A program made the position numbers and the translations under genes. A stretch of 64,000 bases of DNA from an uncultured Candidatus Saccharibacteria bacterium (GTDB lineage Bacteria; Patescibacteriota; Minisyncoccia; Phycocordibacterales; PALSA-1337), in the NCBI GenBank assembly GCA_964358005.1, contig CAYHNH010000002.1:18596-82595 (forward strand), written 5' to 3'. This document shows positions 1 through 51,034 of this stretch, one piece after another (positions within the stretch are counted from its first letter, which is position 1; every line of letters begins with the position of its first letter). The notes under the pieces are model-generated. The model had not been told where the DNA came from. It saw only the letters and a list, made by a program, of their open reading frames with translations, and searched no databases.

Positions 1-183
1 TATCGATATATTTTGTGGGTAATGACCTGGCTACAGCATACTCAAAAGAATTCTGCGGAGGCCCTCATATAAAGAACACTGCGGAACTGGCTGGGCCAGA
101 GGGAAAGCTCCGCTTCAGGATAGCCAAGGAAGAGGCAGTCTCCCAGGGAGTGCGCCGGATAAAAGCCGTGTTAGAATAGTCGC

Positions 184-1293
184 ATGTTCTTCTTTGGCGA
201 CTCCAAGCCCAAGCTAAGCCTACTGTTAGAGATACAGAGCTCCCTTGTGAGAGGAACGTTGGCTCTATACGAGGATGGGAGGTTGAAGGAGGTTCTCTAC
301 AGCCTCGACATCGATATCCCATACATCCCACATGCCACTAGCGCATATTATGTTAAAACAGCGCTGCGCAATCTAACAGAAGCCATAGAGACAGCGCTCA
401 AGCACCTGCATCTCATATCGGAAGCGCGGCCGGAGCTCCGTATCCCGAAAAGGCCTGATGATGTCCACTTTGTGATGTCATCGCCATGGATAATATCCCA
501 GCCTAGGAACGTGGTCGTCCCATTCGGTAGGAAAACCGCAATAACGGAGGATAGAATAAAGAAAATCCTAGATGAGGAGCGAATGAAGATGGATTTCGGA
601 CAGAAGCTCAAGGTCGAGACCATAGAAGAAAAGATCTTCGAGGTACGTCTGAACGGATATGCTATAGGAGACTGGCACGGCAAGGAATCCGACAGCCTCG
701 AAGTCTCATATGCTCTATCTGCCGGAAGCTCTGATACTATAGACAAGCTACGAGACATTGCCATCCACTCAACCGGGACGAGGAAGGTATTATTCCACTC
801 AGCCCTCATACTCCACTATATGAGGCTTAGAAATCTGCCTTTGACTCCCCATTCCTACGCGCTCATATATATCCACGGCGAGCAGACTGACGTCATGATA
901 GTGGAGCGACAGCTCTGTTCGTTCTTCGGGTCATTCCCAGTGGGGGTAAATTCTGTGATACGGCGTATCACAGCTGCAGCCCACATCGACCGTCGATCGG
1001 CCGAATCCCTGCTGGCGCTGCATATCGGCGAACATATCGACAAGGAGCATGACAAAACGACTGATGCCCTCATGGCCACCGCATCTTTATATTGGAGAGA
1101 CGGTTTACGCAAGATCCTCGGACCAACCGATCCGGAAAGCAGGATGCCGGACAATGTATTCATGGCCTCCGGAACTCATGACGAATTCTTCACAAGGAGC
1201 CTCCTGTCATTTAAGTCGGACTGCCGGCTGCTACCACTGCCTGCTAGAGCAGAGAATGCATATGCACAGGCTATTAACAATGCTCCAAGGTAG
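184..1293 (+). CDS. hypothetical protein, possible actin-like ATPase fold (FtsA/PilM-like)
   Basis: 369-aa ORF. Two segments resemble the phosphate loops of actin-fold ATPases (LLLEIQSSLVRGTLA; ALIYIHGEQTDVMIVE). A TAGAAT -10 hexamer sits at 172-177, 6 nt before the ATG. Confidence 0.45.
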   Translation: MFFFGDSKPKLSLLLEIQSSLVRGTLALYEDGRLKEVLYSLDIDIPYIPHATSAYYVKTALRNLTEAIETALKHLHLISEARPELRIPKRPDDVHFVMSSPWIISQPRNVVVPFGRKTAITEDRIKKILDEERMKMDFGQKLKVETIEEKIFEVRLNGYAIGDWHGKESDSLEVSYALSAGSSDTIDKLRDIAIHSTGTRKVLFHSALILHYMRLRNLPLTPHSYALIYIHGEQTDVMIVERQLCSFFGSFPVGVNSVIRRITAAAHIDRRSAESLLALHIGEHIDKEHDKTTDALMATASLYWRDGLRKILGPTDPESRMPDNVFMASGTHDEFFTRSLLSFKSDCRLLPLPARAENAYAQAINNAPR

Positions 1294-1319
1294 CCGGTCT
1301 GTGTTATCATACAAGAAAT

Positions 1320-2720
1320 ATGCCTCGTAGAGTTGAAGACATAATCAGGACAGACCGGAGATCCATAAGAAACGTATCTGTCAAAGAATCTGAAAAGATA
1401 CCGGAGAAAAAGCCGGCCGCCAGAGTGCGCCCGGCATCCAAGCCGGATATAGAGGACATGAGTCCCGTGAGAAAAACAAGGACATCATCGGCTATCCGGC
1501 TACCCAAGATAGTTCAGGAACCGCCTATCGGCCGGACAGGCCGGAAGGGCAGAGGCGGGCGCCGGCTGTGGCTACTCATAGTAATCGGCGTGGTCGCAGT
1601 GGTCGGATTTACCGCATTTATCGCATCTTCTTATTTTTCACGCGCGACCTTTTCGATCGTACCTGTGACATTTCCGGTGAGCGTCAATAATGTGACGATT
1701 GTGGCAACAGGAACTTCCACGCCCGGATACATCCGCTACGACGTCGCAAGATACAACGGCACCGCCTCAACGAGCATACCCGCATCTGATGGGCCGATCA
1801 TATCCACGAAATCCACTGGGACGGTGACCTTGTACAACTACTTTGCGACCGAAGGGCAGAGACTCATAGCCGGCACACGCCTTTCTAATGACAACGGCAT
1901 GATATACAGGCTCACAAGCTCCATCTTCATACCTGGATACAAAGCTTCCGGGGGATCGATAATCCCGGGCACCATCCGGACGACAGTGGTGGCAGAGAGC
2001 GCGGGAGCGCAGTATGACCTGGGCAGGAATGAAGGTAGCGGCACGTTGAAGGTCGTCGCCTATAAAGGCGCTCCACGCTATGATTCTATATATGCTAAGG
2101 CCTATAGCGACATAGCAGGGGGCTTCTCCGGAACCAAGAAAACCGTGGATAAATCGCTCCTAGCTTCCACGACAGAGAATCTCCAGAAAGCCCTACAGAA
2201 GACGCTCGAGAGCCAGGCTCTCGCTAACGTCCCTCCAGGCTCTGTGACATACAACACTGCCTATACGATATCCTTCAGCCAACCCAAAATAGGCGGCGAA
2301 GCCGCAAAGAGCGCTACTGTCACCCTGACTGCTACACTCTACAGCGTCTTGTTCAAGAAATCAGAGCTGGTAGCCAAACTTGCCGGATCACAGAATGTAG
2401 GCCGTTTCGGCAAATGGCCATTTTCAAGCGATGGCTTGGAGAACCTAAAATTCTCCATAACCAATCCGGGAACATTTAAGCCTACCGCAGGAAACGCTCT
2501 GATCGCCCGCCTGAATGGAAATATGCAGCTCCGAGGAATAGTCCCGACTGACGAGCTCAGGCAAAAACTGGCAGGCCTATCTTTGGCTCAAACCCGTGCT
2601 GTCTTCGGTTCATATAGTTCCGTCATCGACATAAGCAAGAGCCTCGGGGAGCTATTCCCGTCATGGGCTTCCTCCGTGCCCAAAGACGAAAATAGGATCA
2701 CCGTGGTCGTAAAAGACTAA
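1320..2720 (+). CDS. hypothetical membrane-anchored protein (basic N-terminus, one TM helix, large extracytoplasmic domain)
   Basis: 466-aa ORF with the TM segment LWLLIVIGVVAVVGFTAFIASSYF. It follows the previous gene by 26 nt. Confidence 0.5.
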   Translation: MPRRVEDIIRTDRRSIRNVSVKESEKIPEKKPAARVRPASKPDIEDMSPVRKTRTSSAIRLPKIVQEPPIGRTGRKGRGGRRLWLLIVIGVVAVVGFTAFIASSYFSRATFSIVPVTFPVSVNNVTIVATGTSTPGYIRYDVARYNGTASTSIPASDGPIISTKSTGTVTLYNYFATEGQRLIAGTRLSNDNGMIYRLTSSIFIPGYKASGGSIIPGTIRTTVVAESAGAQYDLGRNEGSGTLKVVAYKGAPRYDSIYAKAYSDIAGGFSGTKKTVDKSLLASTTENLQKALQKTLESQALANVPPGSVTYNTAYTISFSQPKIGGEAAKSATVTLTATLYSVLFKKSELVAKLAGSQNVGRFGKWPFSSDGLENLKFSITNPGTFKPTAGNALIARLNGNMQLRGIVPTDELRQKLAGLSLAQTRAVFGSYSSVIDISKSLGELFPSWASSVPKDENRITVVVKD

Positions 2721-2725
2721 GTTTC

Positions 2726-2754
2726 TTGACTATATTATGGGTCTCTGCTAATAT
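2726..2754 (+). promoter_or_regulatory. sigma70-type promoter (TTGACT, 17-bp spacer, TAATAT) for the infA-rpmJ-rpsM-rpsK-rpsD-rpoA-rplQ cluster
   Basis: The -35 TTGACT lies at 2726-2731 and the -10 TAATAT at 2749-2754, with a 17-nt spacer. The infA ATG at 2775 is 20 nt downstream. Confidence 0.5.
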
Positions 2755-2774
2755 TCGGAAACGCGTTTATACGC

Positions 2775-3002
2775 ATGGATACCGCTCCTCAACCAAAGAA
2801 TACCGCGACCGGAACCGTCGTAGAGGCGTTACCGGACACGCTGTTTCGTGTTTCGATCACAAATGACGGGACTGAAACCATCGTACTGGCCTACTTGGCT
2901 GGAAAGATGAGGATGAACAGGATCCGTGTATTGGTAGGCGACCGGGTAGAGATAATGCAGGATCCATACGGAGGAAGAGCGCGCATCATAAAACGGTTAT
3001 AA
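2775..3002 (+). CDS. infA: translation initiation factor IF-1
   Basis: 75-aa S1-like protein ([49 protein letters not shown]) immediately upstream of rpmJ/rpsM. Confidence 0.9.
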
Positions 3003-3537: not shown

Positions 3538-3963
3538 ATGGGTAAAAAAAGGATAGTCACAACTGAAGGAGGGGCAGAGGCAAAGCCAAAGGCTGCCGGA
3601 GCTGGAAGCAAAAAGCATGTAGATGCTGGCATTTTGCACGTGCAGTCTACCTACAACAACACCAAGGTCATGCTCACCGACAAGCAGGGCAACGCCCTTA
3701 TGTGGGGATCATCTGGTGGTGCAGGCTTTCGAGGCGCAAAGAAGGGCACTCCATTCGCAGCCGCCAAGGTCGGCGAAACTCTGGCGCTCAAGGCAGTCAA
3801 TCTCGGACTTAAGGAGATCGACGTCGTCGTCAAGGGAGTCGGTTCCGGCCGTGAGTCAGCCATACGTGGTTTTATCAGCAAGGGCGTCGTCATCACTTCC
3901 ATCAAGGATGCGACGCCTGTTCCTTTTAATGGCCCGCAACCTAAGAAGCCACGACGCGTCTAA
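3538..3963 (+). CDS. rpsK: 30S ribosomal protein S11
   Basis: 141 aa (HVQSTYNNTKVMLTDKQGNAL...GSGRESAIRG). Confidence 0.92.
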   Translation: MGKKRIVTTEGGAEAKPKAAGAGSKKHVDAGILHVQSTYNNTKVMLTDKQGNALMWGSSGGAGFRGAKKGTPFAAAKVGETLALKAVNLGLKEIDVVVKGVGSGRESAIRGFISKGVVITSIKDATPVPFNGPQPKKPRRV

Positions 3964-3972
3964 TATACATAT

Positions 3973-4578
3973 ATGCAAATCGGCCCACGCTACAAAAAAG
4001 CTCGCTATCTAGGTGCTCCTATATTCAGGAAGACCCAGACGCAGAAATACGCTATGCGATCTCAGCGCAAGGTCAAGACCACCAAGCGCCGTGGCGGCAA
4101 GAGCGAATACGGCCGTCAGATGCTAGAGAAACAGAAGGCCCGTTTCAGCTATGGAGTCTCGGGAGGACAGTTCTCAAATTACGTCAAGAAGGCCCTGCAG
4201 GCTTCAGGCGATAACGCCAAGAACCTGATCAGCATTCTCGAGGGCCGCCTCGATAATGTGATAGTTCGCGCAGGCTTTGCGCCGACGCGTTCGGCTGCTC
4301 GCCAGATGGTCTCTCACGGCCATATCACGGTCGGTGGAAAGAAGGTGAACATCCCGTCATATCAGGTAAGGACTGGCGAGGTGCTGTCAGTCCGCTCCGG
4401 CAGTGTCGGCAAGGCGATCTTCTCGAAGGTCAGCGAGGATGTGAAGGCCACCAAAGTGCCGACATGGATGAGCGTGGATGCCGACAAGAAAGAGATACGC
4501 ATATCGGGTGAGCCGACAGCGGATGCGACAGATCTTTTGTTCGATGTCCGTTCGGTCTTGGAGTTCTACACCCGCTAG
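3973..4578 (+). CDS. rpsD: 30S ribosomal protein S4
   Basis: 201 aa with the S4 N-terminal domain and an S4 RNA-binding domain (LDNVIVRAGFAPTRSAARQMVSHGHITVGGKKVNIPSYQV). Confidence 0.92.
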   Translation: MQIGPRYKKARYLGAPIFRKTQTQKYAMRSQRKVKTTKRRGGKSEYGRQMLEKQKARFSYGVSGGQFSNYVKKALQASGDNAKNLISILEGRLDNVIVRAGFAPTRSAARQMVSHGHITVGGKKVNIPSYQVRTGEVLSVRSGSVGKAIFSKVSEDVKATKVPTWMSVDADKKEIRISGEPTADATDLLFDVRSVLEFYTR

Positions 4579-5624: not shown

Positions 5625-5975
5625 ATGAGGCACCATTCCAACGTACGAAAATTCGGTCGCGAGAAGACACAGAGGCACGCCCTCATGCGTTCTCTGGCCC
5701 GCAACCTTATCCGCGACAACAGGATCAGGACCACCGGCGCCAAGGCCAAGGAATTGCGCCCGTACGTAGAGAAGCTGGTGACTCGCGCAAAGATCGGCAC
5801 GATCGCCTCCAGGCGTTTGGTGAGCTCGAGGCTCATGGGCGACCCTGAGGTCAAGAAGCTTTTTGACGAGATCGCTCCTAAGTACAAGGAGAGGAAGGGC
5901 GGCTACACCAGGATAGTCAAGCTCCCGAACCGCGATCTGGACGGCAGCTCGATGGCCCTCATCGAATTTGTATAA
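5625..5975 (+). CDS. rplQ: 50S ribosomal protein L17
   Basis: 116 aa (MRHHSNVRKFGREKTQRHALMRSLARNLI...). Confidence 0.92.
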   Translation: MRHHSNVRKFGREKTQRHALMRSLARNLIRDNRIRTTGAKAKELRPYVEKLVTRAKIGTIASRRLVSSRLMGDPEVKKLFDEIAPKYKERKGGYTRIVKLPNRDLDGSSMALIEFV

Positions 5976-5982
5976 TACGAAC

Positions 5983-6327
5983 ATGAAATACACCATTGAC
6001 GCACAAGGTAAGAAGATCGGACGCATAGCCTCGGCGGCTGCGGCACGCCTCATGGGCAAGTCCAGCGTCTCCTTCGCTAAGAATAAAGTGCATGCCGAGG
6101 TCGTAGAGATAGTGAACGCCTCGAAAACCGACATGAGCGCGGTGAAGAAGCAGAACGACACTTACGTCACCTATACTGGCCACCGTGGAGGCCTCGAGAG
6201 CGAGACCCTAGGTGAGCTCATCATCCGCCGCGGCATGAAGGAGGTCTATACCCGCGCCATAGAGCGCATGCTCCCGAGGAATAAGCTGCGCAAAGACCGT
6301 ATGAAGAACCTTATCATCAAAGACTAA
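5983..6327 (+). CDS. rplM: 50S ribosomal protein L13
   Basis: L13 family (GKKIGRIASAAAARLMGK...HTGHRGG). The ATG at 5983 is preferred over the track's TTG at 5968. A TATAAT at 5971-5976 lies 6 nt upstream of that ATG. Confidence 0.88.
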   Translation: MKYTIDAQGKKIGRIASAAAARLMGKSSVSFAKNKVHAEVVEIVNASKTDMSAVKKQNDTYVTYTGHRGGLESETLGELIIRRGMKEVYTRAIERMLPRNKLRKDRMKNLIIKD

Positions 6328-6328: not shown

Positions 6329-6739
6329 ATGACAGCCACAAAACACACCGGAAAATATTTCGAGGCAGTAGGGCGCAGGAAGACTTCGGTCGCTCGCGTG
6401 CGCCTTTTCCCGGCCAAGGAGCTTTCTTTCGAGGTGAACGGCAAGGAGCTCGCGGTATATTTCCCGACTCGAGAGATGCAGGCTACAGCACATGAGGCGA
6501 TCAAGAATGCCAAGCCGGCTGAAAAGTTCTTCATCTCCGCAAAGCTCTCCGGAGGCGGCATCGTCTCCCAGTCTGAAGCCCTCCGTCACGGCATCGCTCG
6601 CGCTCTCCTCGTATACGATATACAGCTTCGCGGCACCCTGAAGAAAGCAGGTTTCCTCTCTCGAGATGCCCGCGCCAAGGAACGCAGAAAGTTCGGTCTG
6701 AAGAAGGCACGTAAGTCTCCGCAGTGGGCAAAACGTTAG
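6329..6739 (+). CDS. rpsI: 30S ribosomal protein S9
   Basis: 136 aa with an S9 C-terminus (GGGIVSQSEALRHGIARALL...ARKSPQWAKR). Confidence 0.92.
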   Translation: MTATKHTGKYFEAVGRRKTSVARVRLFPAKELSFEVNGKELAVYFPTREMQATAHEAIKNAKPAEKFFISAKLSGGGIVSQSEALRHGIARALLVYDIQLRGTLKKAGFLSRDARAKERRKFGLKKARKSPQWAKR

Positions 6740-6748
6740 GATCTAATA

Positions 6749-7306
6749 ATGAAAGAACACAAAAAGGACATCGAAAATAACGATCTCGATGACTCGGTTG
6801 TAGCCGAGGAGAATGCCGCAGAAGCCATAAAGAAGCTGCGCGAAAAGCTCAAGAAATGCGAAGCCGAGAAGATGGAATATCTGACCGGCTGGCAACGCGC
6901 CAAGGCTGACATGATAAATGCTCGCAAACGCGATGAGGCTGAGCGAGCAGAGTTCATCAAATTCTCAAACGAGCGCCTGATCGAGAGCCTCATACCTGTC
7001 CTCGAGAGCTTTGATCTAGCCATGGGCAATAAGGTGGCCTGGGAAAAGGCCGACAAGAACTGGCGTGTTGGGGTCGAGTATATCTATTCACAGCTAAAGA
7101 AGGCTTTGGCTGATTCGGGCCTGGAGGAGATTGACCCTATCGGAAAAGCATTTGACCACAGCCGTGACGAAGCGGCTGAATACGTGCCTGCTGAAAAAGA
7201 GGCAGACCATCATAAGATCATTGCTGTGATTCAAAAGGGGTATGTCCTGAATGGGAAAGCTCTAAGGCCACCGAAGGTGAGAGTGGGGGAGTTTAAGACT
7301 CTTTAA
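6749..7306 (+). CDS. grpE: nucleotide exchange factor GrpE
   Basis: 185 aa with a coiled-coil N-terminus and the GrpE C-terminal domain (ESLIPVLESFDLAM...PIGKAFDHSRDEAAEYVPAEKEADHHKIIAVIQKGYVLNGKALRPPKVRV). Confidence 0.9.
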   Translation: MKEHKKDIENNDLDDSVVAEENAAEAIKKLREKLKKCEAEKMEYLTGWQRAKADMINARKRDEAERAEFIKFSNERLIESLIPVLESFDLAMGNKVAWEKADKNWRVGVEYIYSQLKKALADSGLEEIDPIGKAFDHSRDEAAEYVPAEKEADHHKIIAVIQKGYVLNGKALRPPKVRVGEFKTL

Positions 7307-7670: not shown

Positions 7671-7697
7671 TTGACTACCCAATACGTCTGATATAAT
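7671..7697 (+). promoter_or_regulatory. sigma70-like promoter (TTGACT, 15-nt spacer, TATAAT) ahead of the 7707 ORF and the dnaK locus
   Basis: TTGACT lies at 7671-7676 and TATAAT at 7692-7697. The ATG at 7707 is 9 nt downstream of the -10. Confidence 0.45.
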
Positions 7698-7706
7698 AGG
7701 AAAACA

Positions 7707-8030
7707 ATGCTTACCCCTTATTCACGCTCAAATTTCGTCGAAAAAGTCCTGACCGACCACTCCGGCCGCCAGTTCAGGGCGCTTTTCCTCGTTACGCTCG
7801 TAAATGGGGAAGTGAAGGGTCATCTCCTTTCCCTCAAGCCGATGCCGATGAAGACTCTTGCCATCGAGGGTGCTGTTTCTGATGGCTCTATCTGCCTGCC
7901 TTGCTGGACGACAGACTGCGAGATCGAGACTCCGTATGTCGCCTCATATGCACCAGTCATTTCTCCATACTTTAGCGAGCTCGACATTTTCCTATCTACA
8001 CAACCAACCAGGGCGCCTGCTTTTGCATAA
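7707..8030 (+). CDS. hypothetical protein
   Basis: 107-aa ORF directly downstream of a promoter-like element. No recognisable domain. Confidence 0.4.
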   Translation: MLTPYSRSNFVEKVLTDHSGRQFRALFLVTLVNGEVKGHLLSLKPMPMKTLAIEGAVSDGSICLPCWTTDCEIETPYVASYAPVISPYFSELDIFLSTQPTRAPAFA

Positions 8031-10844: not shown

Positions 10845-11960
10845 ATGAAAGACTACTACAAAACCCTAGGTGTGGAGCGGGGCGCTTCCAAGGAGGACAT
10901 CAAAAAGGCCTTCCGTAAGCTCGCGCACGAGCATCACCCTGACAAGACCAAGAACGACCCGACATCCTCGCAGAAATTCAAAGAGGCTAGCGAGGCGTAT
11001 TCGGTGCTATCTGACGACAGCAAACGCAAACAATACGACACCTTCGGCTCGGCTGGACCTGGTATGGGAGGCGGTCCCGGCGGTGGCGGTTTCGGAGGCG
11101 GCGCAGGCTTTAACCCCCAGGACTTCGCCGGTTTCGACTTCTCTGGATTCCAGAATGGTCAGGGCGGGGTAGAATTCGACCTCGGCGACATGTTCGGCGA
11201 TTTCTTCGGTGGCGGACGAAACAGGCAGACTCAAACCCAGAGAGGCAGGGATGTCTCCATCGACATCCAGATTTCATTCGAGGAGTCTATCTTCGGCGTC
11301 GAGCGCGACATCATCGTAACGAAGACAGCGCAATGCCTAGCATGCCACGGCACAGGCGCTGAGACCGGCTCAAGCATGGAAACCTGCAAGACCTGCAACG
11401 GAAAAGGCAAGATAAACGAGACGCGCAGGTCATTTATCGGCGTATTCTCGACGACTCGAGCGTGCGATTCATGCCACGGCAAGGGTCAAGTACCAAAAAA
11501 CAAATGCCATACATGCCACGGCCACGGTGTGCTCGAGCGCCAGCAAGAGATAACGGCGAAGATACCGCCTGGCATAGAGGATGGCGAGATGGTCAGGCTC
11601 GGCGGCATGGGCGAGGCCGTCTCTAACGGCGTCCCGGGCGACATGTACGTGAAGGTCCACGTGAAGCCTCACCAGTTCATACGCAAGCAGGGTCTCGACC
11701 TCGCATCCGACATCCGGATAAAGCTCACCGAGGCCCTGACCGGCGCCAAGATACCTTTCAAGTCCCTGGATGGCGAGCTCGAAGTATCTGTACCGGAGGG
11801 CACGAACACCGGCGACATCCTACGCGTGCGTGGCAAGGGAGTCCCGGGTGAGAACGGCCGTCGCGGCGACCTGCTCATAAGGATCGCAGTCGATATGCCC
11901 AAGAAGCTTTCCAAGAATGCGCGTAAGATCATCGATGATTTGAAAAATGAAGGTTTATGA
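10845..11960 (+). CDS. dnaJ: molecular chaperone DnaJ
   Basis: J domain with HPD (YKTLGV...HHPDK), a G/F-rich linker, and four CxxCxGxG zinc-finger repeats. Confidence 0.93.
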   Translation: MKDYYKTLGVERGASKEDIKKAFRKLAHEHHPDKTKNDPTSSQKFKEASEAYSVLSDDSKRKQYDTFGSAGPGMGGGPGGGGFGGGAGFNPQDFAGFDFSGFQNGQGGVEFDLGDMFGDFFGGGRNRQTQTQRGRDVSIDIQISFEESIFGVERDIIVTKTAQCLACHGTGAETGSSMETCKTCNGKGKINETRRSFIGVFSTTRACDSCHGKGQVPKNKCHTCHGHGVLERQQEITAKIPPGIEDGEMVRLGGMGEAVSNGVPGDMYVKVHVKPHQFIRKQGLDLASDIRIKLTEALTGAKIPFKSLDGELEVSVPEGTNTGDILRVRGKGVPGENGRRGDLLIRIAVDMPKKLSKNARKIIDDLKNEGL

Positions 11961-11975
11961 TATAGTATTCCGCCC

Positions 11976-17450: not shown

Positions 17451-17545
17451 AGGAAGGAATTGTCAAAGCTGTGGTGCATTCTAGCACGTTAATGTATATA
17501 TGTCAACCTCTGCTAAACGGCCCTGATTCCTGCTATCATTCATCC

Positions 17546-21416: not shown

Positions 21417-21437
21417 AAATTTGATATAATAAAGCCT

Positions 21438-23521: not shown

Positions 23522-23527
23522 GCTTTC

Positions 23528-32195: not shown

Positions 32196-32205
32196 GATTT
32201 ATAGA

Positions 32206-34441: not shown

Positions 34442-34595
34442 GGTGTTTACTTAGCTCAGTTTTGTGATATAAGTATAGCACCTTTGGACTCATTCGTCAA
34501 TACCTAATCGTAGGGTATCCTTATTTAGAGCCATTCTCTGGACTTACTCCACAGCATTTTTGGTCATTTGGCAATAGTCACGTATAATTGGGGCT

Positions 34596-35999: not shown

Positions 36000-36033
36000 G
36001 GCGCACAAAAGCAATCTTAGTAATTTGATTGAG

Positions 36034-37668: not shown

Positions 37669-37745
37669 GTAATAAGGAAATTTTAGCACGACTAGCGCTA
37701 AAAACAGCTGTGTGTTATGATATTTCGACCTAATAAAACACCTAT

Positions 37746-38018
37746 ATGGCACATCGCAAAGCGGAAGGCACAACAAAAAACGGGCGTGATTCAAACCCGA
37801 AATACCTAGGCGTCAAGATAAACCACGGCCAGGCTGTCGGCGTAGGTCAGATCATCATCCGCCAGCGCGGCACAGACGTACTCCCAGGCAGGAATGTTGG
37901 TACAGGCAAGGACTATACCCTCTTCGCCTTGAAGGACGGCAAGGTCTCTTTTGGTACCAAGCGCAAGACTAGCTACAACAACGACATCGAGCGCAAGAAG
38001 ATAGTGCACGTCGTCTAG
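37746..38018 (+). CDS. rpmA: 50S ribosomal protein L27
   Basis: 90 aa ([24 protein letters not shown]...IIIRQRGT...[15 protein letters not shown]). Confidence 0.9.
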
Positions 38019-38035
38019 GTTAACTCCTTTAGGGA

Positions 38036-38156
38036 AGGTCGTGCAATCAGTCGAAACAGACTTTCGGAGGAGATTTCTAGCAGGAAATCTCCGAGAACAG
38101 AACCGACCCTCTGCAGAGGGTCGAGTTCGGGTCTGTTGAGGTTGATTGCACGACCT
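38036..38156. other. nested multi-stem structured element between convergent genes
   Basis: A perfect 13-bp outer stem pairs AGGTCGTGCAATC (38036-48) with GATTGCACGACCT (38144-56). It encloses three hairpins (CGAAA/TTTCG; GGAGATTTC tagcag GAAATCTCC; CGACCCTC tgca GAGGGTCG). Confidence 0.55.
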
Positions 38157-38169
38157 TTCGCATGTATAC

Positions 38170-39663
38170 CTATACGTTTTGGAAAATCGATATGCTGGCA
38201 AAAAAGCAAATTGAGCAAAGGATGAATAAATAAATAACCGATACAAGCAAACCAGCGAAAAATCCACTGAATCTCGACCCCTTAGATCTAAGGTCAGCGA
38301 TTATATAAGCCAAAAGAGCTGAAACAGGGATGACTATCGGGTAAACGAAACGGAAATCTGAACTCGGAAAATAAGGGTAGAGATATCGTCCAACAACAGC
38401 TGACACAATCAAAAGCGCGATCGAGAATAGGGTGAGCACTCGCATAGGCGCATCGGATTGAATCGCAAAAAAATCCCTAGTGAATCCTTTTGCAATAAAC
38501 ATAAGCCCGACCACCATGGCCAACAGCATAAGAATAAGAAGGTAGCTCATCAGAATCGCCTGAAATGCAAACGTATTTCCATCAAAACGATACTCTCCAA
38601 AAAGAGAGCTCTTTAGGAAAACATTCAGGAAGTACTGCCGCCCAGTGGTATCGTGGCTTAGGTCCATGAATGGATACTGAACAAAAGACTGCAGGTCGAA
38701 ACTGATGAAATTTTTGATATCATTTGTCGTAAGTACATCAGTCATTAAAATTGCATTAGGATTCAACTCCGATCTAAAATCAAAAGCCTTGTTCCCATAA
38801 AACTTGCTATGTCTAAGACCTGCAAAACACAATAAGATCAATACCGCTGGCAACATTATCTTGCAGACATCGATCAGTATCTCTTTCTTGCTTTTGGCTA
38901 GGATGAGCTTAAGCAAAATCGCAATAATAATAACAGCGAGCAGCACGAGACCGGTACCCTTGGTAAGCAGAGAAGCGATCAGGAAAATAACTGACAATAG
39001 TAAGCTTTTCCATCGGGCGTCCTTGAACCATTTTGTGATGAAATAAGCTCCGCCAGCTATAAAAAAATATGATAAAGCGTCGTTATTTATTGTAACTGAG
39101 GTGATGATCCCCGCAGGCCAGAAGATGAGCAGCATCGCTGAAAGATTAAAATATATATCGTTTGTTCCCTCTGGGATAAACAAACGCAATAGCTTAATCC
39201 CAAAATATAGGAAACCGACACTAGCGAGAAGCGATAGCAGCTGTAAAATCAACAATCCTTCACCATCATTAGAACAAGAGCTGAAATAACATACAGGGCT
39301 CACACTCATGTAATATAAAGGCGGATGGAAACCTTCCCAGCAATCGTTAGCTGATGGGAGGGAGTGATTGCTTGATATGTAATTGATATTGCAGATATGG
39401 CCTTGCACATCGTGACCGCGTACAAATGGGGGCGTTTCGCTAAGATATGCAATACGCAGAAGCAAGCCCGCGAGAAGAATCAGCGTTACCAGGTAACTGC
39501 CGGCAATAGGTTTCTTCCTAGCTATGTATAGGAGAACAATAGCGCTAGTCAACGCCAGGATTATAGGAATGTATGGTGCTGCTACAAAATTAGCGCTGTG
39601 GAAAGAATTTACTAGGATCATCAGGAAAAGAACTATCAGTCCGATGAAAGCTAGATTTTTCAC
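38170..39663 (-). CDS. GT-C glycosyltransferase, PMT/ArnT-like (family 39/83)
   Basis: 497-aa polytopic membrane protein with a first-loop motif (RGHDVQGH...WEGFHPPLYY) resembling the PMT/ArnT DE-HPPL region. Confidence 0.65.
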   Translation of the reverse strand: MKNLAFIGLIVLFLMILVNSFHSANFVAAPYIPIILALTSAIVLLYIARKKPIAGSYLVTLILLAGLLLRIAYLSETPPFVRGHDVQGHICNINYISSNHSLPSANDCWEGFHPPLYYMSVSPVCYFSSCSNDGEGLLILQLLSLLASVGFLYFGIKLLRLFIPEGTNDIYFNLSAMLLIFWPAGIITSVTINNDALSYFFIAGGAYFITKWFKDARWKSLLLSVIFLIASLLTKGTGLVLLAVIIIAILLKLILAKSKKEILIDVCKIMLPAVLILLCFAGLRHSKFYGNKAFDFRSELNPNAILMTDVLTTNDIKNFISFDLQSFVQYPFMDLSHDTTGRQYFLNVFLKSSLFGEYRFDGNTFAFQAILMSYLLILMLLAMVVGLMFIAKGFTRDFFAIQSDAPMRVLTLFSIALLIVSAVVGRYLYPYFPSSDFRFVYPIVIPVSALLAYIIADLRSKGSRFSGFFAGLLVSVIYLFILCSICFFASISIFQNV

Positions 39664-39728
39664 ATGGATATTTTAACATACTCTATATCCAATTCAGAAA
39701 AAAAAGTGCTAAAGTACAAGCAAAAAAC

Positions 39729-40445
39729 ATGGCAACCCCTATGATGAAAATGTTAAGGATCGCCAGGGCGTCAGGGTCACCTGAATCATATTATAATTCC
39801 ATTGCTGGTTTATATGACCATGGAAAAAAGAAGAACCTCTATTATTTTGATAATCTAGTTAGTCTTTATAGATTTTTTATACCTACTGGAAGGAATATAT
39901 TGGAGATTGGCTGTGGGACTGGCGACCTTATAACTAAGCTCGATGCGCGCGAGGCGCTTGGGATAGATTTGAGCGCTGAAATGATAAAAACTGCGCAAAG
40001 AAAATATCATAACCTCAAAAAAATCAGATTCGAACGCATGGACATAACATCTTCCTCCGAATTATTTCGAACCGAGTACATAATGATAGTCGATGTGCTT
40101 GAACATGTGATCGATGTGCCTAAATTCATCAAGCAGGTTTATATACGCGCCCCAAGAGAAGCAAGGGTGATCATCTCAGTCGCAAATCCGATCTGGGAGC
40201 CATTTTTAATGCTAGCTGAAAAATTACGCATGAAGATCCCCGAAGGACCCCACAAACGCCTTACCATTAAGAAAACCGAGGAAATCTATGGCCAAGCTGG
40301 CTTTCTGATCGAGCAAAAAGGCTATAGACTCCTTGTACCAAAAAGACTTCCATTTTCGGATTGGATAAATGAGCGATTTTATAGGAGCAGACTGATGGGT
40401 CACCTAGGCCTAGTGGTATTCTGGGTTTTAGTGAAGCGAACCTAA
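39729..40445 (+). CDS. class I SAM-dependent methyltransferase
   Basis: Motif I (ILEIGCGTGDL) and post-I acidic residues; 238 aa. Confidence 0.75.
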   Translation: MATPMMKMLRIARASGSPESYYNSIAGLYDHGKKKNLYYFDNLVSLYRFFIPTGRNILEIGCGTGDLITKLDAREALGIDLSAEMIKTAQRKYHNLKKIRFERMDITSSSELFRTEYIMIVDVLEHVIDVPKFIKQVYIRAPREARVIISVANPIWEPFLMLAEKLRMKIPEGPHKRLTIKKTEEIYGQAGFLIEQKGYRLLVPKRLPFSDWINERFYRSRLMGHLGLVVFWVLVKRT

Positions 40446-40457: not shown

Positions 40458-40901
40458 TTACGCCACCTCGATGACTAGCTTGAACTTCGCGGACTTACCT
40501 CCGGCTTTGACCTCGATCATGTGTTCGCCGACCTCCTTGATCGGATGTTCTATCTGTATGAATGACGGATCTATCTGAAGTTCTGTCTTCTTTTGCAATT
40601 CCGCGGCTATGGCCTCTCGATGCAATCCGGCAAAGAGATGTCCTTTTTCGTTGGCCTTCCCAGATACATTCAGCGTGAGCCCGTCGAGGTCCTTGATATT
40701 CTTGGCGATCAGGTCTTCGCGGACTGCCCTCTCCTGGTCTATCTTAGCCTTCTGGGCCTTCATTGTATTCATGGCCGATGATGTGGCTGGCATAGCCTCG
40801 CCTCTCGGGATCAGGAGATTCAGGGCGTGGCCGCTCTTCACCTCCTTCACATCGAACTTCTTGCCGAGCTTGGCGACATCTTTCAGTAATATGACTTTCA
40901 T
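40458..40901 (-). CDS. rplI: 50S ribosomal protein L9
   Basis: 147 aa (MKVILLKDVAKLGKKFDVKEVKSGHALNLLIP...). Confidence 0.88.
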   Translation of the reverse strand: MKVILLKDVAKLGKKFDVKEVKSGHALNLLIPRGEAMPATSSAMNTMKAQKAKIDQERAVREDLIAKNIKDLDGLTLNVSGKANEKGHLFAGLHREAIAAELQKKTELQIDPSFIQIEHPIKEVGEHMIEVKAGGKSAKFKLVIEVA

Positions 40902-42125: not shown

Positions 42126-42140
42126 AAAATTAGTTTCGCA

Positions 42141-42146
42141 TATAAT
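42141..42146 (+). promoter_or_regulatory. TATAAT -10 hexamer 7 nt upstream of the corA-like start (leaderless-type)
   Basis: Sequence is TATAAT cattcac ATG. Confidence 0.4.
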
Positions 42147-42153
42147 CATTCAC

Positions 42154-43077
42154 ATGACAACAACTCATTCAGCCCGCGGCTTAGTTTGGATAGATATGCA
42201 GTCCCCCACCGAGGACGAGGTGAGCGGCCTGATCAAGCGCTACGGCCTCCATCCGCTCGTGGGAGAGGAACTACGTAACTCCCCATCCCTGCCGAAGATA
42301 AGCATACAAAAGGACTACATACTGGTCGTGCTCATGTTGCCGGTGAGGATAAAGAAGAACGGCTCGCACTCCATAGTGAACCGAGAGGTGGACTTCGTCA
42401 TAGGCAAGAACTATCTCATTACCGCCCATCCGGACGGCCTCGAGCAGTTGGAATACTTCGCCCGGATATTCGAGACCAACGCTATACTCAACAAGGATTC
42501 CAAGATAGAGCACACTGGCCACCTATTTTATTACATGGTGAAGAGGCTCTATGCCGGCATGTACGAGGACCTGGAGAATCTCCGGGACACCTTGGCGCAC
42601 GCGGAGGAACAGGTATTCCTGGGCGAGGAGCGCAAGATGGTCCAGGCCCTGTCCAGCATATCGAGAGAGCTCATAGATTTCCGCGAGGCCATCAGGATAC
42701 ACCGCGACATTTGGGAGGAGCTCACGGCTTTTCCTGGCGAAACTCTGCTACCTGAGGACTTCAGGCCATATACCAGGGATATACGCGACGAATTCACCCG
42801 CATCAACGAACTCATACACAATTCCCGCGAGCTGGTCGGCGATCTCCGCGAGACAAATGACTCCCTCCTGAATTCTAAGCAAAATGAGATCATCAAGACC
42901 CTGACTCTCATGGCCTTTATGACCTTCCCACTGTCCCTCATCGCCGCCATCTTCGCCCTACCATCGAAGAATGTGCCCATTATCGGCGGCCAGTATGACT
43001 GGTTCGTCATTATCGGCATTATGGCCGTGGTCGCTGGCATACTGCTCTGGCAATTCAAGAGGAATAAATGGATATAA
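42154..43077 (+). CDS. CorA-like divalent cation transporter (MIT family) with degenerate GMN motif
   Basis: CorA cytoplasmic domain followed by two C-terminal TM helices. The position of the canonical YGMNF is occupied by FALPSKN, on a hand alignment. Confidence 0.65.
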   Translation: MTTTHSARGLVWIDMQSPTEDEVSGLIKRYGLHPLVGEELRNSPSLPKISIQKDYILVVLMLPVRIKKNGSHSIVNREVDFVIGKNYLITAHPDGLEQLEYFARIFETNAILNKDSKIEHTGHLFYYMVKRLYAGMYEDLENLRDTLAHAEEQVFLGEERKMVQALSSISRELIDFREAIRIHRDIWEELTAFPGETLLPEDFRPYTRDIRDEFTRINELIHNSRELVGDLRETNDSLLNSKQNEIIKTLTLMAFMTFPLSLIAAIFALPSKNVPIIGGQYDWFVIIGIMAVVAGILLWQFKRNKWI

Positions 43078-44837: not shown

Positions 44838-46292
44838 TTGATACATTTCCCGATGGACAGAGATTTTTCTGTTTATGCTAGAATCAAGTCTTCCAATATT
44901 GAAATTTTAATGAGTCCGATATCGCCATACGTCAAATCGAGAGATCTGAAGATACCTCCTCAGAGCCTCGACGCAGAAAAGGCCCTACTGGGGTCACTTC
45001 TTATTAGGGGTGAGACTATGCACGATATTGTCGACTCCGTCTCTGAGCAATCCTTCTATGCGACCCAGCACAAGATGGTCTGGTCTGCCCTTTTCGAACT
45101 TCATAGCAAGGGCACGCCCATAGACATACTATCCATATCAGCCCGTCTGAAGGACAAGGGCGCTCTGGAGCAGGTCGGCGGCATGTCTTACCTCACCGAG
45201 CTCATAAACATGGTGCCCTCCTCGACCAACGCCGGCCACTATGCCGAAATAGTCGAGAAAAAGCACGTCATGCGCGAGCTCCTGCGAGCCGCCGAGAACA
45301 TCACCGGCCTTGGCTATGACGAGGAGGCCGATCTTCACGATCTTCTCGAGAAGGCTGAGAAGGAGCTGTATTCGGTGACGAACAAGACCGGCTCGCACAA
45401 GTTCGTGGAGCTCAAGGATACGTTGACGGAGGCCTGGGACCGCCTCGATCATCTCCATAAGACACGCGATGAGCTGCGCGGCGTCCCCACCGGATTCTCC
45501 GATCTAGACAACAAGCTGGCCGGCTTTCAGAAGTCCGATCTCATCATCTTGGCCGCCAGGCCTTCCATGGGTAAGACTGCCCTGGCTCTCGACATCGCTA
45601 GGAGGGCCGCCATCAACCACAAGGTTCCTGTAGCTATATTTTCCCTAGAAATGAGCTCTCAACAGCTCGTAGATCGCATGCTTTCAGCAGAATCGCAGGT
45701 GGATGCCTGGAAGATACGCACTGGCCACAATCTATCCGTGGAAGGCGATTTTAAGGCCATTGGAGACGCTATAGGCAGGCTTTCCGAGGCTCCGATATTC
45801 ATCGACGACCAGCCCGGCAATAATATCCTCAAGATGCGCGCCGTGGCTCGCCGCCTCAAGAATGAGAAGAAGCTCGGGCTCATCATAGTTGACTATCTCC
45901 AGCTCATGGTCCCGACCCAGCAGGGCCGCTACAACGACAACCTGGTCCAGCAGGTCACGGAGATCTCCCGCTCGCTCAAGAACATGGCTCGAGAATTGGA
46001 GCTGCCTGTTTTGGCGTTGTCACAACTCTCTCGTGCCGTGGAGGCGCGCGGCGGCAAACCTCGACTTTCCGATCTGCGTGATTCAGGCTCTATCGAGCAG
46101 GATGCGGATGTTGTCATGTTCATCCACCGCGAGAATGCCGAGGATGGCGGCGGCCGCAAGCAAGAGGCCGAGATATTGATCGAGAAGCACCGCAATGGTC
46201 CCACCGGCGTTGCCAAGCTCTACTTCGATACCAAGAAGGCCACCTTCTTGCCGATGGACAAGGCTGATTTCGGAGATTTTGATAAGGCTTGA
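44838..46292 (+). CDS. dnaB: replicative DNA helicase DnaB
   Basis: N-terminal domain (PPQSLDAEKALLGSLL), Walker A (ARPSMGKTALAL), and RecA-like C-terminal motifs. The start is ambiguous among 44838, 44853 and 44910. Confidence 0.88.
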   Translation: MIHFPMDRDFSVYARIKSSNIEILMSPISPYVKSRDLKIPPQSLDAEKALLGSLLIRGETMHDIVDSVSEQSFYATQHKMVWSALFELHSKGTPIDILSISARLKDKGALEQVGGMSYLTELINMVPSSTNAGHYAEIVEKKHVMRELLRAAENITGLGYDEEADLHDLLEKAEKELYSVTNKTGSHKFVELKDTLTEAWDRLDHLHKTRDELRGVPTGFSDLDNKLAGFQKSDLIILAARPSMGKTALALDIARRAAINHKVPVAIFSLEMSSQQLVDRMLSAESQVDAWKIRTGHNLSVEGDFKAIGDAIGRLSEAPIFIDDQPGNNILKMRAVARRLKNEKKLGLIIVDYLQLMVPTQQGRYNDNLVQQVTEISRSLKNMARELELPVLALSQLSRAVEARGGKPRLSDLRDSGSIEQDADVVMFIHRENAEDGGGRKQEAEILIEKHRNGPTGVAKLYFDTKKATFLPMDKADFGDFDKA

Positions 46293-48174: not shown

Positions 48175-48421
48175 CTTTCCAAAGCAATGAGATGAGATTA
48201 ATGGAGATTAATTCATGGGCATTTGAAAAACATCACGACTGGGCGCAAGCGAACCGGTAAATCCGGTATTCTGCGCACCGACGATCGTATAACCGCAATC
48301 CTGATGGAGCGGCATGGACCAATTCGTGTTGTTCTTATATGCGTGCATATATAAACCGTACAGCATGTGCACAGACATGTCAACATAGCTATGGTGAATA
48401 GCCTCTAATATACTTACCCGA

Positions 48422-49033
48422 ATGGACAACATGCACCGCCTCGAAGAGATCTTTGCCCGTTTTCCCGGCATCGGGCCGAGGCAAGCCAAACGCTTCGTCT
48501 ATCATGTGCAAAGCCGGACGTCAGCGGCAGTGAAGGAGATGGCCGACCTAATCAGGGAGATAAAAAGCTCGACAGTAGAGTGTTCCGACTGCCACAGATT
48601 TTTTATTGACAAGAATGGAAAAAATAATCTTTGTAATATCTGCAACGACGAATCGCGCGACGGATCCAGGCTGATGGTAGTCGCCAGGGATTCCGACCTG
48701 GAGAGTATCGAGAAAAGCGGCGCTTACAAGGGCCTGTATTTCGTGCTTGGAGGCACAGTGCCAATCCTAGACAAGGAGCCCGAACGCCGAGTACGCCTGG
48801 GTGCACTGATGGAGAGGATGACTAAGGGCAAAGAAGGCATAAAAGAAATGATATTGTCAATGAATCTAACGCCTGAAGGCGAGAATACTGCCGACGTCGT
48901 AAAGGAAGCGATCACAGCTCAGAAGAAAGGCGCGACTAAAGTCACCATCCTCGGCCGCGGTCTCTCGACCGGAGCCGAGCTCGAATACGTCGATTCGGAC
49001 ACCATAAGGAACGCCCTCGAGAATAGGCACTAA
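48422..49033 (+). CDS. recR: recombination protein RecR
   Basis: HhH (FPGIGPRQAKRF), C4 zinc finger (CSDCHRF...CNIC), and Toprim domain. Confidence 0.88.
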   Translation: MDNMHRLEEIFARFPGIGPRQAKRFVYHVQSRTSAAVKEMADLIREIKSSTVECSDCHRFFIDKNGKNNLCNICNDESRDGSRLMVVARDSDLESIEKSGAYKGLYFVLGGTVPILDKEPERRVRLGALMERMTKGKEGIKEMILSMNLTPEGENTADVVKEAITAQKKGATKVTILGRGLSTGAELEYVDSDTIRNALENRH

Positions 49034-49066: not shown

Positions 49067-49384
49067 TTTCAGCGAGTCGATCTTGACCTTGAAGAAAGGC
49101 TGACGGTGGCCATTGCGCTTCCATCCTGAACGGTTCTTCTGACGATATTTGACTACGAGGACTGTCGGGAGCTTGCCGATCTTAGCGATGGTGCCGCTGA
49201 CCTTGGCCTTATCAATGAAAGGAGTGCCGATGGATGTATTCTTGCCATCGTCTACCAAGAGGACCTTGTCGAAAACGATCTTGTCGCCCTCCTTGTGGGT
49301 GCCCTGAAGCTTCTCGATGGTGATAGTGTCACCCTTCGAAACCGTATATTGCTTGCCTCCAGTTGCGATGACTGCGAATTCCAT
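49064..49384 (-). CDS. rplU: 50S ribosomal protein L21
   Basis: MEFAVIATGGKQYTVSKGDTITIEKL... matches L21. Start at the internal Met of the track ORF. Confidence 0.85.
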   Translation of the reverse strand: MEFAVIATGGKQYTVSKGDTITIEKLQGTHKEGDKIVFDKVLLVDDGKNTSIGTPFIDKAKVSGTIAKIGKLPTVLVVKYRQKNRSGWKRNGHRQPFFKVKIDSLK

Positions 49385-49457
49385 AATTGAGCCATTATAC
49401 ACGAAAGCCCCTTTTCCGCAACTGGGGCTGTAATTGGGGCTTTTAGGCAAAACCAGC

Positions 49458-50543
49458 CTATTCGGCCTCTGGCTTATCCAACATCGTCGCAGTGAGCTCT
49501 GGAGCCACGTCGGTTATGCGCAAGACGTCCTTATCGAGCTTCTTGAATTCCTTGCTAGAGCTATTGTAATGGTTCACCACCGTGCTTAGAGAGGCCCCGA
49601 GCTTGGCATGATATTCGTTGTACTTATTCAGGTGTGTACCGAGCTCGCCCACACGCTTGACGATATCCTTGGCCGTCTCCTCTATCTGCATAGCCTTGAG
49701 CCCCTGGAGAACCGTCTGTAGATACGCCAGGAATGAAGTCGGTGACACGATGATGACCTTGTACTTGCTCGCCGCGCGTTGGATCAGATTATCGGTTTCC
49801 TCGGCTATGGCCCCTATCTTGTTCACCAGGAGATCGTAATAGATGGCCTCGTGAGGAATGAACATGAAGGCAAAATCCATCGTACCCTCGGCCGGGCGCA
49901 CGTATTTGGCCGTCTCCTGGATGCGGGTCTTCAGGTCGTTCACGAATTCCTTCTCCAGCTTGGCCCTGGTCTCGGCATTGCGTTCACCGGATAGCTTGTT
50001 GTAGTTCTCGAGCGAGAACTTGGAGTCCACCGGTATGACCTTGTCCTTCACGAATACAGCCGCGTCCACGACTTCCCCATTCTTGAATGCGTACTGCATC
50101 TTGTACTGGCCAGGAGCCAGGACGTTAGCGAGAAGCGTCTCGAGATAGTATTCACCGAGGATGCCGCGGTGCTTGGGATTCTTAAGGATATCCTGGAGAT
50201 TCTCGAGCTGATCGGCGAATGACACGACCTGCTTGTTGGTCTCATCGAGCTTGGTCAGACCCTGCGTGACTTCCTTGATCAGCTTGGCGGACTCTGACAG
50301 CTGGGCGCGCATCGAGTCCTGCATCGAGACGGCGCTCTGGTGGATCTTGTTATCGACGGTCCTGGTGAGATCGCCGACCTTGCGGTCCACGGTACGGTTG
50401 AGCTCGTTTACCTGCTCCAGGATCAGGCTCAAGCCTTCACCATCCTGCTTCTGCTGTTCCGGCTTGCGACGCAGGAATACTAGGGCGAATATGACATTGG
50501 CAATTACGGCCAAAATGACTAGAATGATGAGTATAGTCTCCAT
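49458..50543 (-). CDS. rmuC: DNA recombination protein RmuC
   Basis: N-terminal TM helix, coiled coil, and an RmuC C-terminal nuclease-like domain (FAFMFIPHEAIYYDLL). Confidence 0.8.
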   Translation of the reverse strand: METILIILVILAVIANVIFALVFLRRKPEQQKQDGEGLSLILEQVNELNRTVDRKVGDLTRTVDNKIHQSAVSMQDSMRAQLSESAKLIKEVTQGLTKLDETNKQVVSFADQLENLQDILKNPKHRGILGEYYLETLLANVLAPGQYKMQYAFKNGEVVDAAVFVKDKVIPVDSKFSLENYNKLSGERNAETRAKLEKEFVNDLKTRIQETAKYVRPAEGTMDFAFMFIPHEAIYYDLLVNKIGAIAEETDNLIQRAASKYKVIIVSPTSFLAYLQTVLQGLKAMQIEETAKDIVKRVGELGTHLNKYNEYHAKLGASLSTVVNHYNSSSKEFKKLDKDVLRITDVAPELTATMLDKPEAE

Positions 50544-50566
50544 GAGCTTAGTATATAAGAAATAAC

Positions 50567-51034
50567 ATGCTACACCAAACCATCAAAAACCAGATCAAAG
50601 ACGCCCTGCGTGCCAAAGACACCGTGAAGCTCGAGACCTTGCGAGGCCTCAATGCCCTGTTCCAGAACGAGATACTCACAGGCGCGGTTCCTGCAGGCAC
50701 TGAATTCCTGACCGATGACAAGGCTATGGCACTAGTCAAAAGGAGCGTCAAACAGCGCAAGGATTCTATCGAGCAATTCACCAAGGGCGGCCGCAAGGAC
50801 CTAGCGGACAAAGAAAAGGAGGAGCTAGCCATACTCGAGGCCTATCTGCCGTCCATGATGCCCCGTGAGGAGATCCGTCTCATCGCACGCGGAAGGATAG
50901 AGAAAATGAAATCAGAAGGCTCCTTCGACCCCAAGGCCGTGGGCAAGATCACTGGCATGCTCATGAAAGAACTGGCCGGCAAGGCTGATGGAGCCGATGT
51001 GAAAGCGGTGGTGGATGAGCTACTGAAGGCTTAG
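50567..51034 (+). CDS. GatB/YqeY domain protein
   Basis: 155 aa (LRAKDTVKLETLRGLNALFQNEIL...), YqeY-like. Confidence 0.7.
   Translation: MLHQTIKNQIKDALRAKDTVKLETLRGLNALFQNEILTGAVPAGTEFLTDDKAMALVKRSVKQRKDSIEQFTKGGRKDLADKEKEELAILEAYLPSMMPREEIRLIARGRIEKMKSEGSFDPKAVGKITGMLMKELAGKADGADVKAVVDELLKA

Follow-up and report, generated by a model that had tools for sequence, protein, structure and literature searches.

Many genes in the 64,000-nucleotide stretch of contig CAYHNH010000002.1 analyzed here (positions 18,596 to 82,595; hereafter the window) are preceded at close range by a TATAAT-like −10 hexamer, and the same arrangement recurs across related genomes of the Candidate Phyla Radiation (CPR). 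Because the −10 box lies 6–7 nt before the start codon and Shine-Dalgarno (SD) sequences are almost absent, many of these mRNAs probably begin at the AUG itself. We put a probability of about 0.78 on the view that the hexamers give rise to leaderless or nearly leaderless mRNAs without SD sequences, lineage-wide in the Paceibacteria/Parcubacteria group of the CPR. An earlier reading of the window made from the DNA letters only (the sequence-only reading) had taken ten such hexamers as signs of leaderless transcription, and this remains the best-supported explanation in view of the position peak, the sigma-70 features at unselected positions, the conservation, the depletion within operons, and the lack of SD enrichment described below.

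All ten hexamers are where that reading had placed them, as two checks of the sequence confirmed. They and the genes that they precede are listed here, with N6, N7, and so on giving the spacer to the start codon.

169–186, plus strand: TGtTAGAAT-N6-ATG at a 369-residue hypothetical gene (start 184); the promoter is internal to the preceding gene, at its 3′ end, and the −10 box overlaps the TAG stop of that gene (177–179)
1302–1322, plus strand: TGtTATCAT-N9-ATG at a 466-residue hypothetical gene (start 1320); predicted leader of ~3 nt; orthologues have TGnTAnnnT at spacers 6–10
5971–5985, plus strand: TATAAT-N6-ATG at rplM (start 5983)
17531–17548, plus strand: TGcTATCAT-N6-ATG at trpS (start 17546), at position 1 of the TrpS profile; a strong leaderless signature
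21422–21440, plus strand: TGaTATAAT-N7-ATG at murG (start 21438)
23513–23530, plus strand: TGcTATAAT-N6-ATG at gltX (start 23528); the GltX profile begins 2 residues past the ATG
26248–26262, plus strand: TATACT-N6-ATG at a 109-residue hypothetical gene (start 26260)
34583–34598, plus strand: TATAAT-N7-GTG at a PMT-family glycosyltransferase gene (start 34596), a candidate leaderless gene; its GTG start is compatible with the family alignment
42141–42156, plus strand: TATAAT-N7-ATG at corA (start 42154)
50554–50569, plus strand: TATAAG-N7-ATG at yqeY (start 50567), a weak site with an alternative TAGTAT at spacer 12

The claimed distance of 6–7 nt holds for nine of these genes, with 6 nt at 184, 5983, 17546, 23528, and 26260 and 7 nt at 21438, 34596, 42154, and 50567; the exception is 1320, for which the sequence-only reading had itself given 9 nt and which would have a leader of ~3 nt rather than being strictly leaderless. 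Not all of the nine are equally convincing as examples. Those at 184, 17546, 21438, 23528, 26260, and 42154 are robust, and 34596, with a GTG start that a public gene call shares, is plausible. The rplM hexamer is probably coincidental. It consists of the conserved C-terminal codons of rplQ (L17), GTA-TAA(stop), plus a T; TANNNT stands at spacer 6–7 in just 9 of 67 rplM orthologues, and the conserved GAATT(C/T)GTATAAT lies 3, 6, or 20 nt from the ATG. The yqeY site is weak because a G stands in place of the near-invariant final T, and it is probably no example of the class.

The hexamers are more frequent at this position than chance would allow. With a start rule that is blind to upstream sequence (the first ATG of long non-overlapping open reading frames (ORFs), n = 60), TANNNT is found at spacers 6, 7, and 9 in 12%, 7%, and 10% of starts, against a per-position background in the window of 1.7%. 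At spacer 6–7 it precedes 11 of the 60 starts, where ~2 are expected (binomial P(≥11 of 60) = 5e-6). A scan of both strands that is free of gene calls returned 66 instances of TANNNT-N6/7-ATG, ~14 of them on gene starts compared with ~1.7 expected.

The enrichment over background that the sequence-only reading had put forward as its check is also seen outside the window, in ~160 related loci, where the spacer-6 peak covers 13–20% of genes against a background of ~2%. The relatives of gltX and rpoA that define these loci are all CPR/Patescibacteria of the Paceibacteria/Parcubacteria type, with Taylorbacteria, Zambryskibacteria, Nomurabacteria, Kaiserbacteria, and Paceibacterota among their deposited labels. 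The locus sets are as follows.

55 Paceibacteria-like loci around gltX (771 genes): TANNNT at spacer 6 in 17% of genes; a match of at least 5/6 to TATAAT in 14%; 5/6 background 0.8%
17 closest of the gltX loci (260 genes): 20%, 13%, and 0.7%, respectively
80 independent metagenome loci around rpoA (971 genes): 13%, 8%, and 0.9%, respectively

Locus by locus, the motif is found at 6–86% of genes in the Paceibacteria-like set, with SD sites mostly at 0–12%, whereas the corresponding ranges in non-CPR loci are 0–11% and 8–69%. No Paceibacteria-like locus departs from the pattern. By arithmetic on the counts, the excess of TANNNT over spacers 6–9 amounts to ~22% of the 1802 lineage genes.

Orthologues, although diverged in the flanking upstream sequence, retain the motif at its distance from the start codon. 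TANNNT at spacer 6–7 is present in 24 of 26 orthologues of gene 184, nearly all with TGn and at protein identities of just 33–38%, and in 21 of 25 orthologues of trpS, mostly with TGn. For corA, whose orthologues align from residue 1, TATAAT or TACAAT is found at spacer 6–7 in 11 of 12, and for gene 26260 TANNNT is found at spacer 6 in 12 of 14. The fraction with TANNNT at spacer 6–7 is lower for scpB (23/39), grpE (10/20, with a hexamer better than that of the window), and murG (18/42, several others being shown at 8–9, often with TGn). At gltX, TGCTATA(A/C)T-N6 is kept in the Taylorbacteria-like loci. Orthologues of dnaK, dnaJ, rpsM, rpsK, rpoA, rplQ, rpsI, DUF7282, and rplI are mostly without the motif; for the PMT genes, yqeY, recR, rmuC, and rplU, homologues were absent from the compared loci or too few.

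The start codons to which these distances refer have support of their own. The NCBIfam profiles of trpS, gltX, and murG begin no more than 2 residues from the proposed methionine, and the starts of corA and ctp are backed by orthologue N termini. The window comes from the genome of an ultra-small Paceibacteria (Parcubacteria) bacterium of Hainich groundwater. Proteins identical to those of the window are found on contigs from the 0.1-μm fraction of Hainich groundwater well H41 (ENA ERZ1292624 and ERZ1292625), and the public gene calls on these identical contigs have the same starts for 184, 1320, 5983, 17546, 21438, 23528, 34596 (GTG), 42154, and 50567. Public calls were also used to set the strands of the ORFs at scpA (18497) and rpmA (37746). 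As a separate observation, strain variants of this population (Hainich contigs L160–L167) differ locally: L165 has two shorter calls (195 and 157 residues) in place of the 369-residue gene at 184, and the L164 call for the gene at 39663 is 5 codons longer.

SD sequences are at or below background throughout. Scored as GGAG, GAGG, or AGGA within −16 to −5, they precede 5.8% of the 1802 lineage genes, compared with 7.9% and 8.4% in control windows; in the non-CPR loci the same score gives 31.5% versus 8% in the control. The claim that few genes of the window carry an SD-like element is borne out, with a clear one at ~3 of 63 genes (GGAGG at 30358–30362, cysS at 43068, and a GDSL gene at 51044) and a bare AGGA at four more. 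The MFS transporter that had been named as one of the few does have a GGAG, but just 2 nt from its ATG. The sole canonical SD-like site among the 63 genes is the following.

30347–30362, minus strand: GGAGG-N8-ATG at a 322-residue hypothetical gene, which may reflect chance or recent acquisition

Lineage genes that have no −10 box are A-rich and G-poor before the ATG and show no positional motif. A Parcubacteria subgroup without the anti-SD motif in its 16S rRNA has been described (PMC9297842). Here, tRNA and Rfam scans of the window gave no match and no rRNA, and a search of all compared loci for a 16S 3′ end from which to read the anti-SD found none.

The sequence around the hexamers identifies them as promoter elements. 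We selected 141 spacer-6 genes solely for T, A, and T at −12, −11, and −7, such that all other positions are free to vary. At these unselected positions, T is found at −15 in 68% and G at −14 in 70% of genes, corresponding to the TGn of an extended −10 promoter, and T, A, and A are found at −10, −9, and −8 in 53%, 72%, and 74%. The commonest hexamer is TATAAT itself (45/141). The region from −20 to −17 is T-rich, −1 is a pyrimidine in 80%, and +1 is an A. TG accompanies TANNNT in 49%, 43%, 22%, 32%, and 29% of cases at spacers 6, 7, 8, 9, and 10, compared with ~6% at all other spacers and within coding sequence. Matches of at least 4/6 to the −35 element are modestly enriched (27% versus 12% in controls). 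The enrichment of TG at spacers 6–7 together with the pyrimidine at −1 indicates that the hexamers at these spacers are sigma-70-type promoter elements, often of the extended form TGnTAnnnT with a weak −35, and not compositional noise.

In sigma-70 promoters, transcription starts ~7 nt past the last T of the hexamer, with a preference for a purine that follows a pyrimidine. The motif itself, its spacing, its enrichment and conservation, and the lack of SD sites are observed; from them we infer a transcription start site (TSS) and a mode of initiation along these lines. RNA polymerase would start at the A of the start codon or 1–3 nt (up to ~4 nt) before it, giving mRNAs with no or almost no 5′ leader and no SD, the leaderless ones starting with pppAUG as sigma-70 geometry predicts. 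The ribosome would then bind the 5′-terminal AUG directly, as a 70S particle or as 30S with IF2 and initiator tRNA, without pairing to the 16S rRNA tail. The signature marks about one fifth of all genes, which is a larger share of transcription units. For operon-internal genes, which also are without SD, we can offer conjectures: reinitiation after termination, or loading of ribosomes on unstructured, A-rich RNA.

The alternative that survives best, although we consider it unlikely, is that the promoters are real but that transcription starts 1–6 nt before the start codon, such that the mRNAs have very short leaders and their initiation may differ in detail. Consistent with this idea, TGn-linked hexamers continue at spacers 8–10 (22–32% with TG), about a dozen window genes have their hexamer at spacers 8–13, and scpB has TAAAAT at spacer 12 both in the window and in one relative (L016), most of its orthologues having spacer 6. 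The main peak, however, is at spacer 6, where an A at +1 and a pyrimidine at −1 reproduce the canonical distance from −10 box to TSS, indicating that the modal class is truly leaderless; leaders as short as those proposed would in any case be too small to hold an SD.

The distribution of the motif relative to operons bears on a second alternative, which we regard as quite improbable: that the hexamer is an AU-rich, non-SD motif for ribosome binding or enhancement within longer 5′ untranslated regions, as proposed for Bacteroidetes-type genomes (group B of GeneMarkS-2). The absence of SD sites and the A-rich, G-poor upstream regions of all genes would fit, and group B genomes do have non-SD motifs near their starts (PMC6028130). 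In the lineage studied here, however, genes that lie no more than 5 nt from their upstream neighbor, or overlap it, have the motif in only 7% of cases, although a ribosome-binding motif would be expected there too; for divergent genes and those with a gap above 5 nt, the figure is 26–42%. This depletion is the behavior of a promoter and not of a ribosome-binding motif. The TG that a single base separates from the hexamer and the slight excess of −35 matches likewise belong to promoters and have no known role in RNA, and genes without the hexamer have no positional motif in its place. Many of the promoters fall inside the final codons of the same-strand gene before them, with gaps of 4–25 nt, and 31% of lineage genes with a 6–25-nt gap carry the motif. 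Such nesting suggests that, in this very compact genome, many genes have transcripts of their own.

Several controls address composition. Shadow ORFs, which overlap the genes and by construction share their upstream in-frame stop, show no TANNNT peak in either the window/gltX-locus set or the rpoA-locus set. The 28 non-CPR loci from the same scan have no −10 peak and show a normal SD peak instead, and no peak is found in AT-rich non-CPR loci (GC 0.36–0.38), which have the motif at 0–8% of genes; because the peak is missing there, AT-richness is ruled out as its origin. With only 51 of the 141 spacer-6 hexamers starting TAA or TAG, in-frame stop codons do not explain the peak and are rejected as its general origin, although we accept them for rplM, rpsD, and probably the RND gene. 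There is also no peak near −26, the position (~26 nt upstream) of the archaeal-type TATA box of group D; the peak occupies −12 to −7. The notion that AT-rich intergenic DNA and the TAA/TAG stops of tightly packed upstream genes generate the hexamers as a by-product accounts for rplM (GTA-TAA-T of rplQ, with variable spacing), for rpsD (TAATAT with the rpsK stop), and conceivably for some of those 51 hexamers, but is largely refuted as a general explanation, and very improbable in our estimate, given the shadow ORFs, the AT-rich non-CPR loci, the confinement of TGn enrichment to spacers 6–10, and the retention of the motif by orthologues that differ in hexamer variant.

Some considerations weigh against leaderless transcription from −10 boxes as a full account. 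The position of the TSS is inferred only, and for any single gene transcription may start a few nucleotides upstream or, with the hexamer then part of the RNA, at a greater distance. The assignment of start codons relied on a simple rule or on gene callers, and the latter may themselves make use of upstream motifs. Spacers of 8–10 nt imply short leaders, not strictly leaderless transcripts. At rplM, rpsD, and the RND gene (13462), the stop codon of the preceding gene or constraint on coding sequence accounts for the hexamer. Finally, the reported anti-SD loss concerns a Parcubacteria subgroup and would apply to this organism by extension only.

A Pribnow box 6–8 nt from starts is an accepted signature of leaderless transcription in bacteria (PMC6028130). 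The closest known counterpart is group C of GeneMarkS-2, which comprises most Actinobacteria (Mycobacterium, Streptomyces) and Deinococcus-Thermus, with 25–50% of transcripts leaderless, and in which a 5′-terminal start codon is recognized directly, as in Mycobacterium and Deinococcus (PMC6028130). The loci described here resemble group C in having a Pribnow-type −10 box 6–8 nt before many starts, a TSS predicted at the start codon, a sizeable fraction of genes and of transcription units affected, and a weak −35. They differ in that the other genes of group C use SD sites, whereas here SD is at or below background for all genes, the remaining ones included. They further differ in how often a promoter occupies the end of the coding sequence before it, and in lineage, which is CPR/Parcubacteria; the GeneMarkS-2 paper (PMC6028130) never mentions "Parcubacteria." Group B (Bacteroidetes) is similar in its A-rich upstream regions and in having little or no SD; however, its motif precedes all genes, operon-internal ones included, lies within the transcribed leader, and is not a promoter, whereas here the motif has promoter features, avoids abutting genes, and is not common to all genes. 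The likeness to extended −10 (TGnTATAAT) sigma-70 promoters is direct: TG stands at −15/−14 before TAnnnT in about half of the sites, the interior is that of TATAAT, and the −35, dispensable in such promoters, is weak. Extended −10 promoters are no distinct system; what marks the present ones is that they keep a set distance to the start codon.

The Parcubacteria reported to lack an anti-SD (Tsurumaki et al. 2022, PMC9297842) belong to the same broad lineage, and the lack of SD enrichment found here is the matching observation on the mRNA side. That work dealt with rRNA and ribosomal proteins and did not suggest what might take over the selection of starts. Our literature search found no report of leaderless genes in CPR, Patescibacteria, Parcubacteria, or Saccharibacteria, only incidental citations; its coverage was incomplete, and we make no claim of priority. 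We regard the leaderless-type architecture without SD use as genuine, a known mechanism in a lineage for which we found no report of it. A broader proposal, to which we give somewhat less than even odds, is that a whole class of CPR (Taylor-, Zambryski-, Nomura-, and Kaiserbacteria-labelled metagenome-assembled genomes) has abandoned SD-guided initiation. The first genes of transcription units would be leaderless from extended −10 promoters, many of them nested, and internal genes would be SD-independent, as the mRNA-side counterpart of 16S anti-SD loss. This class could then be the first bacterial lineage to rely on 5′-AUG recognition and SD-independent initiation for practically all of its proteins.

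Leaderless transcription from these promoters offers an mRNA-side answer to how start codons might be chosen in Parcubacteria that reportedly have no anti-SD. It ties the small CPR ribosomes to leaderless initiation, a mode for which Actinobacteria, Deinococcus, and archaea are the usual examples. In these genomes, starts can be misplaced by gene callers that expect SD sites, and the rule TGnTAnnnT-N6-ATG is a simple predictor of both start and promoter.

With further sites added, the 63 genes of the window include ~11 strong leaderless-type sites and ~12 very-short-leader sites. Four candidates at spacers 5–7 that are absent from the sequence-only reading are the following.

39661–39678, minus strand: TGtTAAAAT-N6-GTG at a second PMT_2-like gene (start 39663); the start has no independent support, a variant-contig call being 5 codons longer
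44839–44855, plus strand: TGaTACATT-N5-ATG at dnaB; public call start 44853
48409–48424, plus strand: TATACT-N7-ATG at recR (start 48422); the public call agrees
50541–50555, minus strand: TATACT-N6-ATG at rmuC (start 50543); the public call agrees

Seven others, also new, have TGn or a perfect TATAAT at spacers 9–13. One precedes the start at 57792 on the minus strand; the other six are listed here.

7689–7709, plus strand: TGaTATAAT-N9-ATG at a 107-residue hypothetical gene (start 7707), short leader
11958–11978, plus strand: TGaTATAGT-N9-ATG (or TAGTAT-N7) at a membrane-fusion protein gene (start 11976)
20301–20321, plus strand: TGcTACAAT-N9-ATG at ftsW (start 20319); promoter within the end of scpB, short leader; the orthologues in L024 and L027 have an identical TGcTACAAT at spacer 9–10
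29302–29324, minus strand: TGgTATGAT-N11-ATG at an amidase gene (start 29304); predicted leader of ~5 nt
32193–32210, minus strand: TATAAT-N9-ATG at a 161-residue hypothetical gene (start 32195)
49382–49399, minus strand: TATAAT-N9-ATG at rplU (start 49384); the L21 profile begins 2 residues past the ATG, and the public call agrees

Two sites in the ribosomal protein cluster are less certain.

3961–3975, plus strand: TAATAT-N6-ATG at rpsD; doubtful, including the rpsK TAA stop and having no TGn; motif at spacer 6–7 in 11 of 66 orthologues
6737–6751, plus strand: TAGGAT-N6-ATG at grpE; possible, with a weak hexamer that includes the rpsI TAG stop

At two divergent pairs, the space between the starts is very small. 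The start of ctp (42125, minus strand) and that of corA share an intergenic region of 28 nt (42126–42153). Between rmuC and yqeY there are 23 nt (50544–50566), and the −10 boxes overlap (50550–50555 on the minus strand and 50554–50559 on the plus strand).

infA provides a contrast.

2746–2777, plus strand: TGcTAATAT-N20-ATG at infA, with a conserved ACGCGTTTATACGC directly before the ATG

We consider infA to be leadered because its conserved extended −10 lies ~20 nt upstream; only 1 of 56 infA orthologues has TANNNT at spacer 6–7. A conserved TGCTAATAT ~20 nt upstream of the ATG is followed by ACGCGTTTATACGC, which contains a GCGT/ACGC inverted repeat (ACGCG-loop-ACGC), and both TGCTAATAT and the ACGCG-loop-ACGC element are present in nearly all of the nine closest orthologues displayed. 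The ACGCGTTTATACGC element, for which no covariation is seen, might form a short hairpin or serve as the operator of a protein.

The window contains the housekeeping genes infA-rpsM-rpsK-rpsD-rpoA-rplQ-rplM-rpsI-grpE, followed by dnaK and dnaJ. It also encodes an MFP/RND pump, trpS-scpA-scpB-ftsW-murG and then gltX, PMT-like glycosyltransferases, rplI, ctp, corA-cysS, dnaB, recR, rplU, rmuC, and yqeY. The closest relatives of gltX (23528–24979) are those of L014 (69%) and L001 (63%), with Nomura-/Kaiserbacteria-labelled genomes at ~55%, whereas those of the neighboring trpS, scpB, ftsW, and murG are in L016 (Taylorbacteria), L013, and L027 at 70–80%. Because its closest relatives differ from theirs, there are hints that gltX may have a different history from its neighbors. 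The uL13 protein (5983–6327) is short, with 114 residues aligned from position 12 of the bacterial L13 profile, in agreement with the short uL13 reported for Parcubacteria (PMC9297842), and bL9 is present (40458–40901). Three PMT/PMT_2-like membrane glycosyltransferase genes (30437–31705, minus strand; 34596–35999, plus strand; 38170–39663, minus strand) are clustered with several hypothetical membrane proteins. GC content falls to 0.44 at 36000–40000 and to 0.39 at 56000–60000, compared with ~0.52 elsewhere, and these low-GC stretches may be acquired islands; the second holds two HisKA_7TM histidine kinases (56179–57792, minus strand, and 59546–61255, plus strand) together with an unknown gene of 551 residues.

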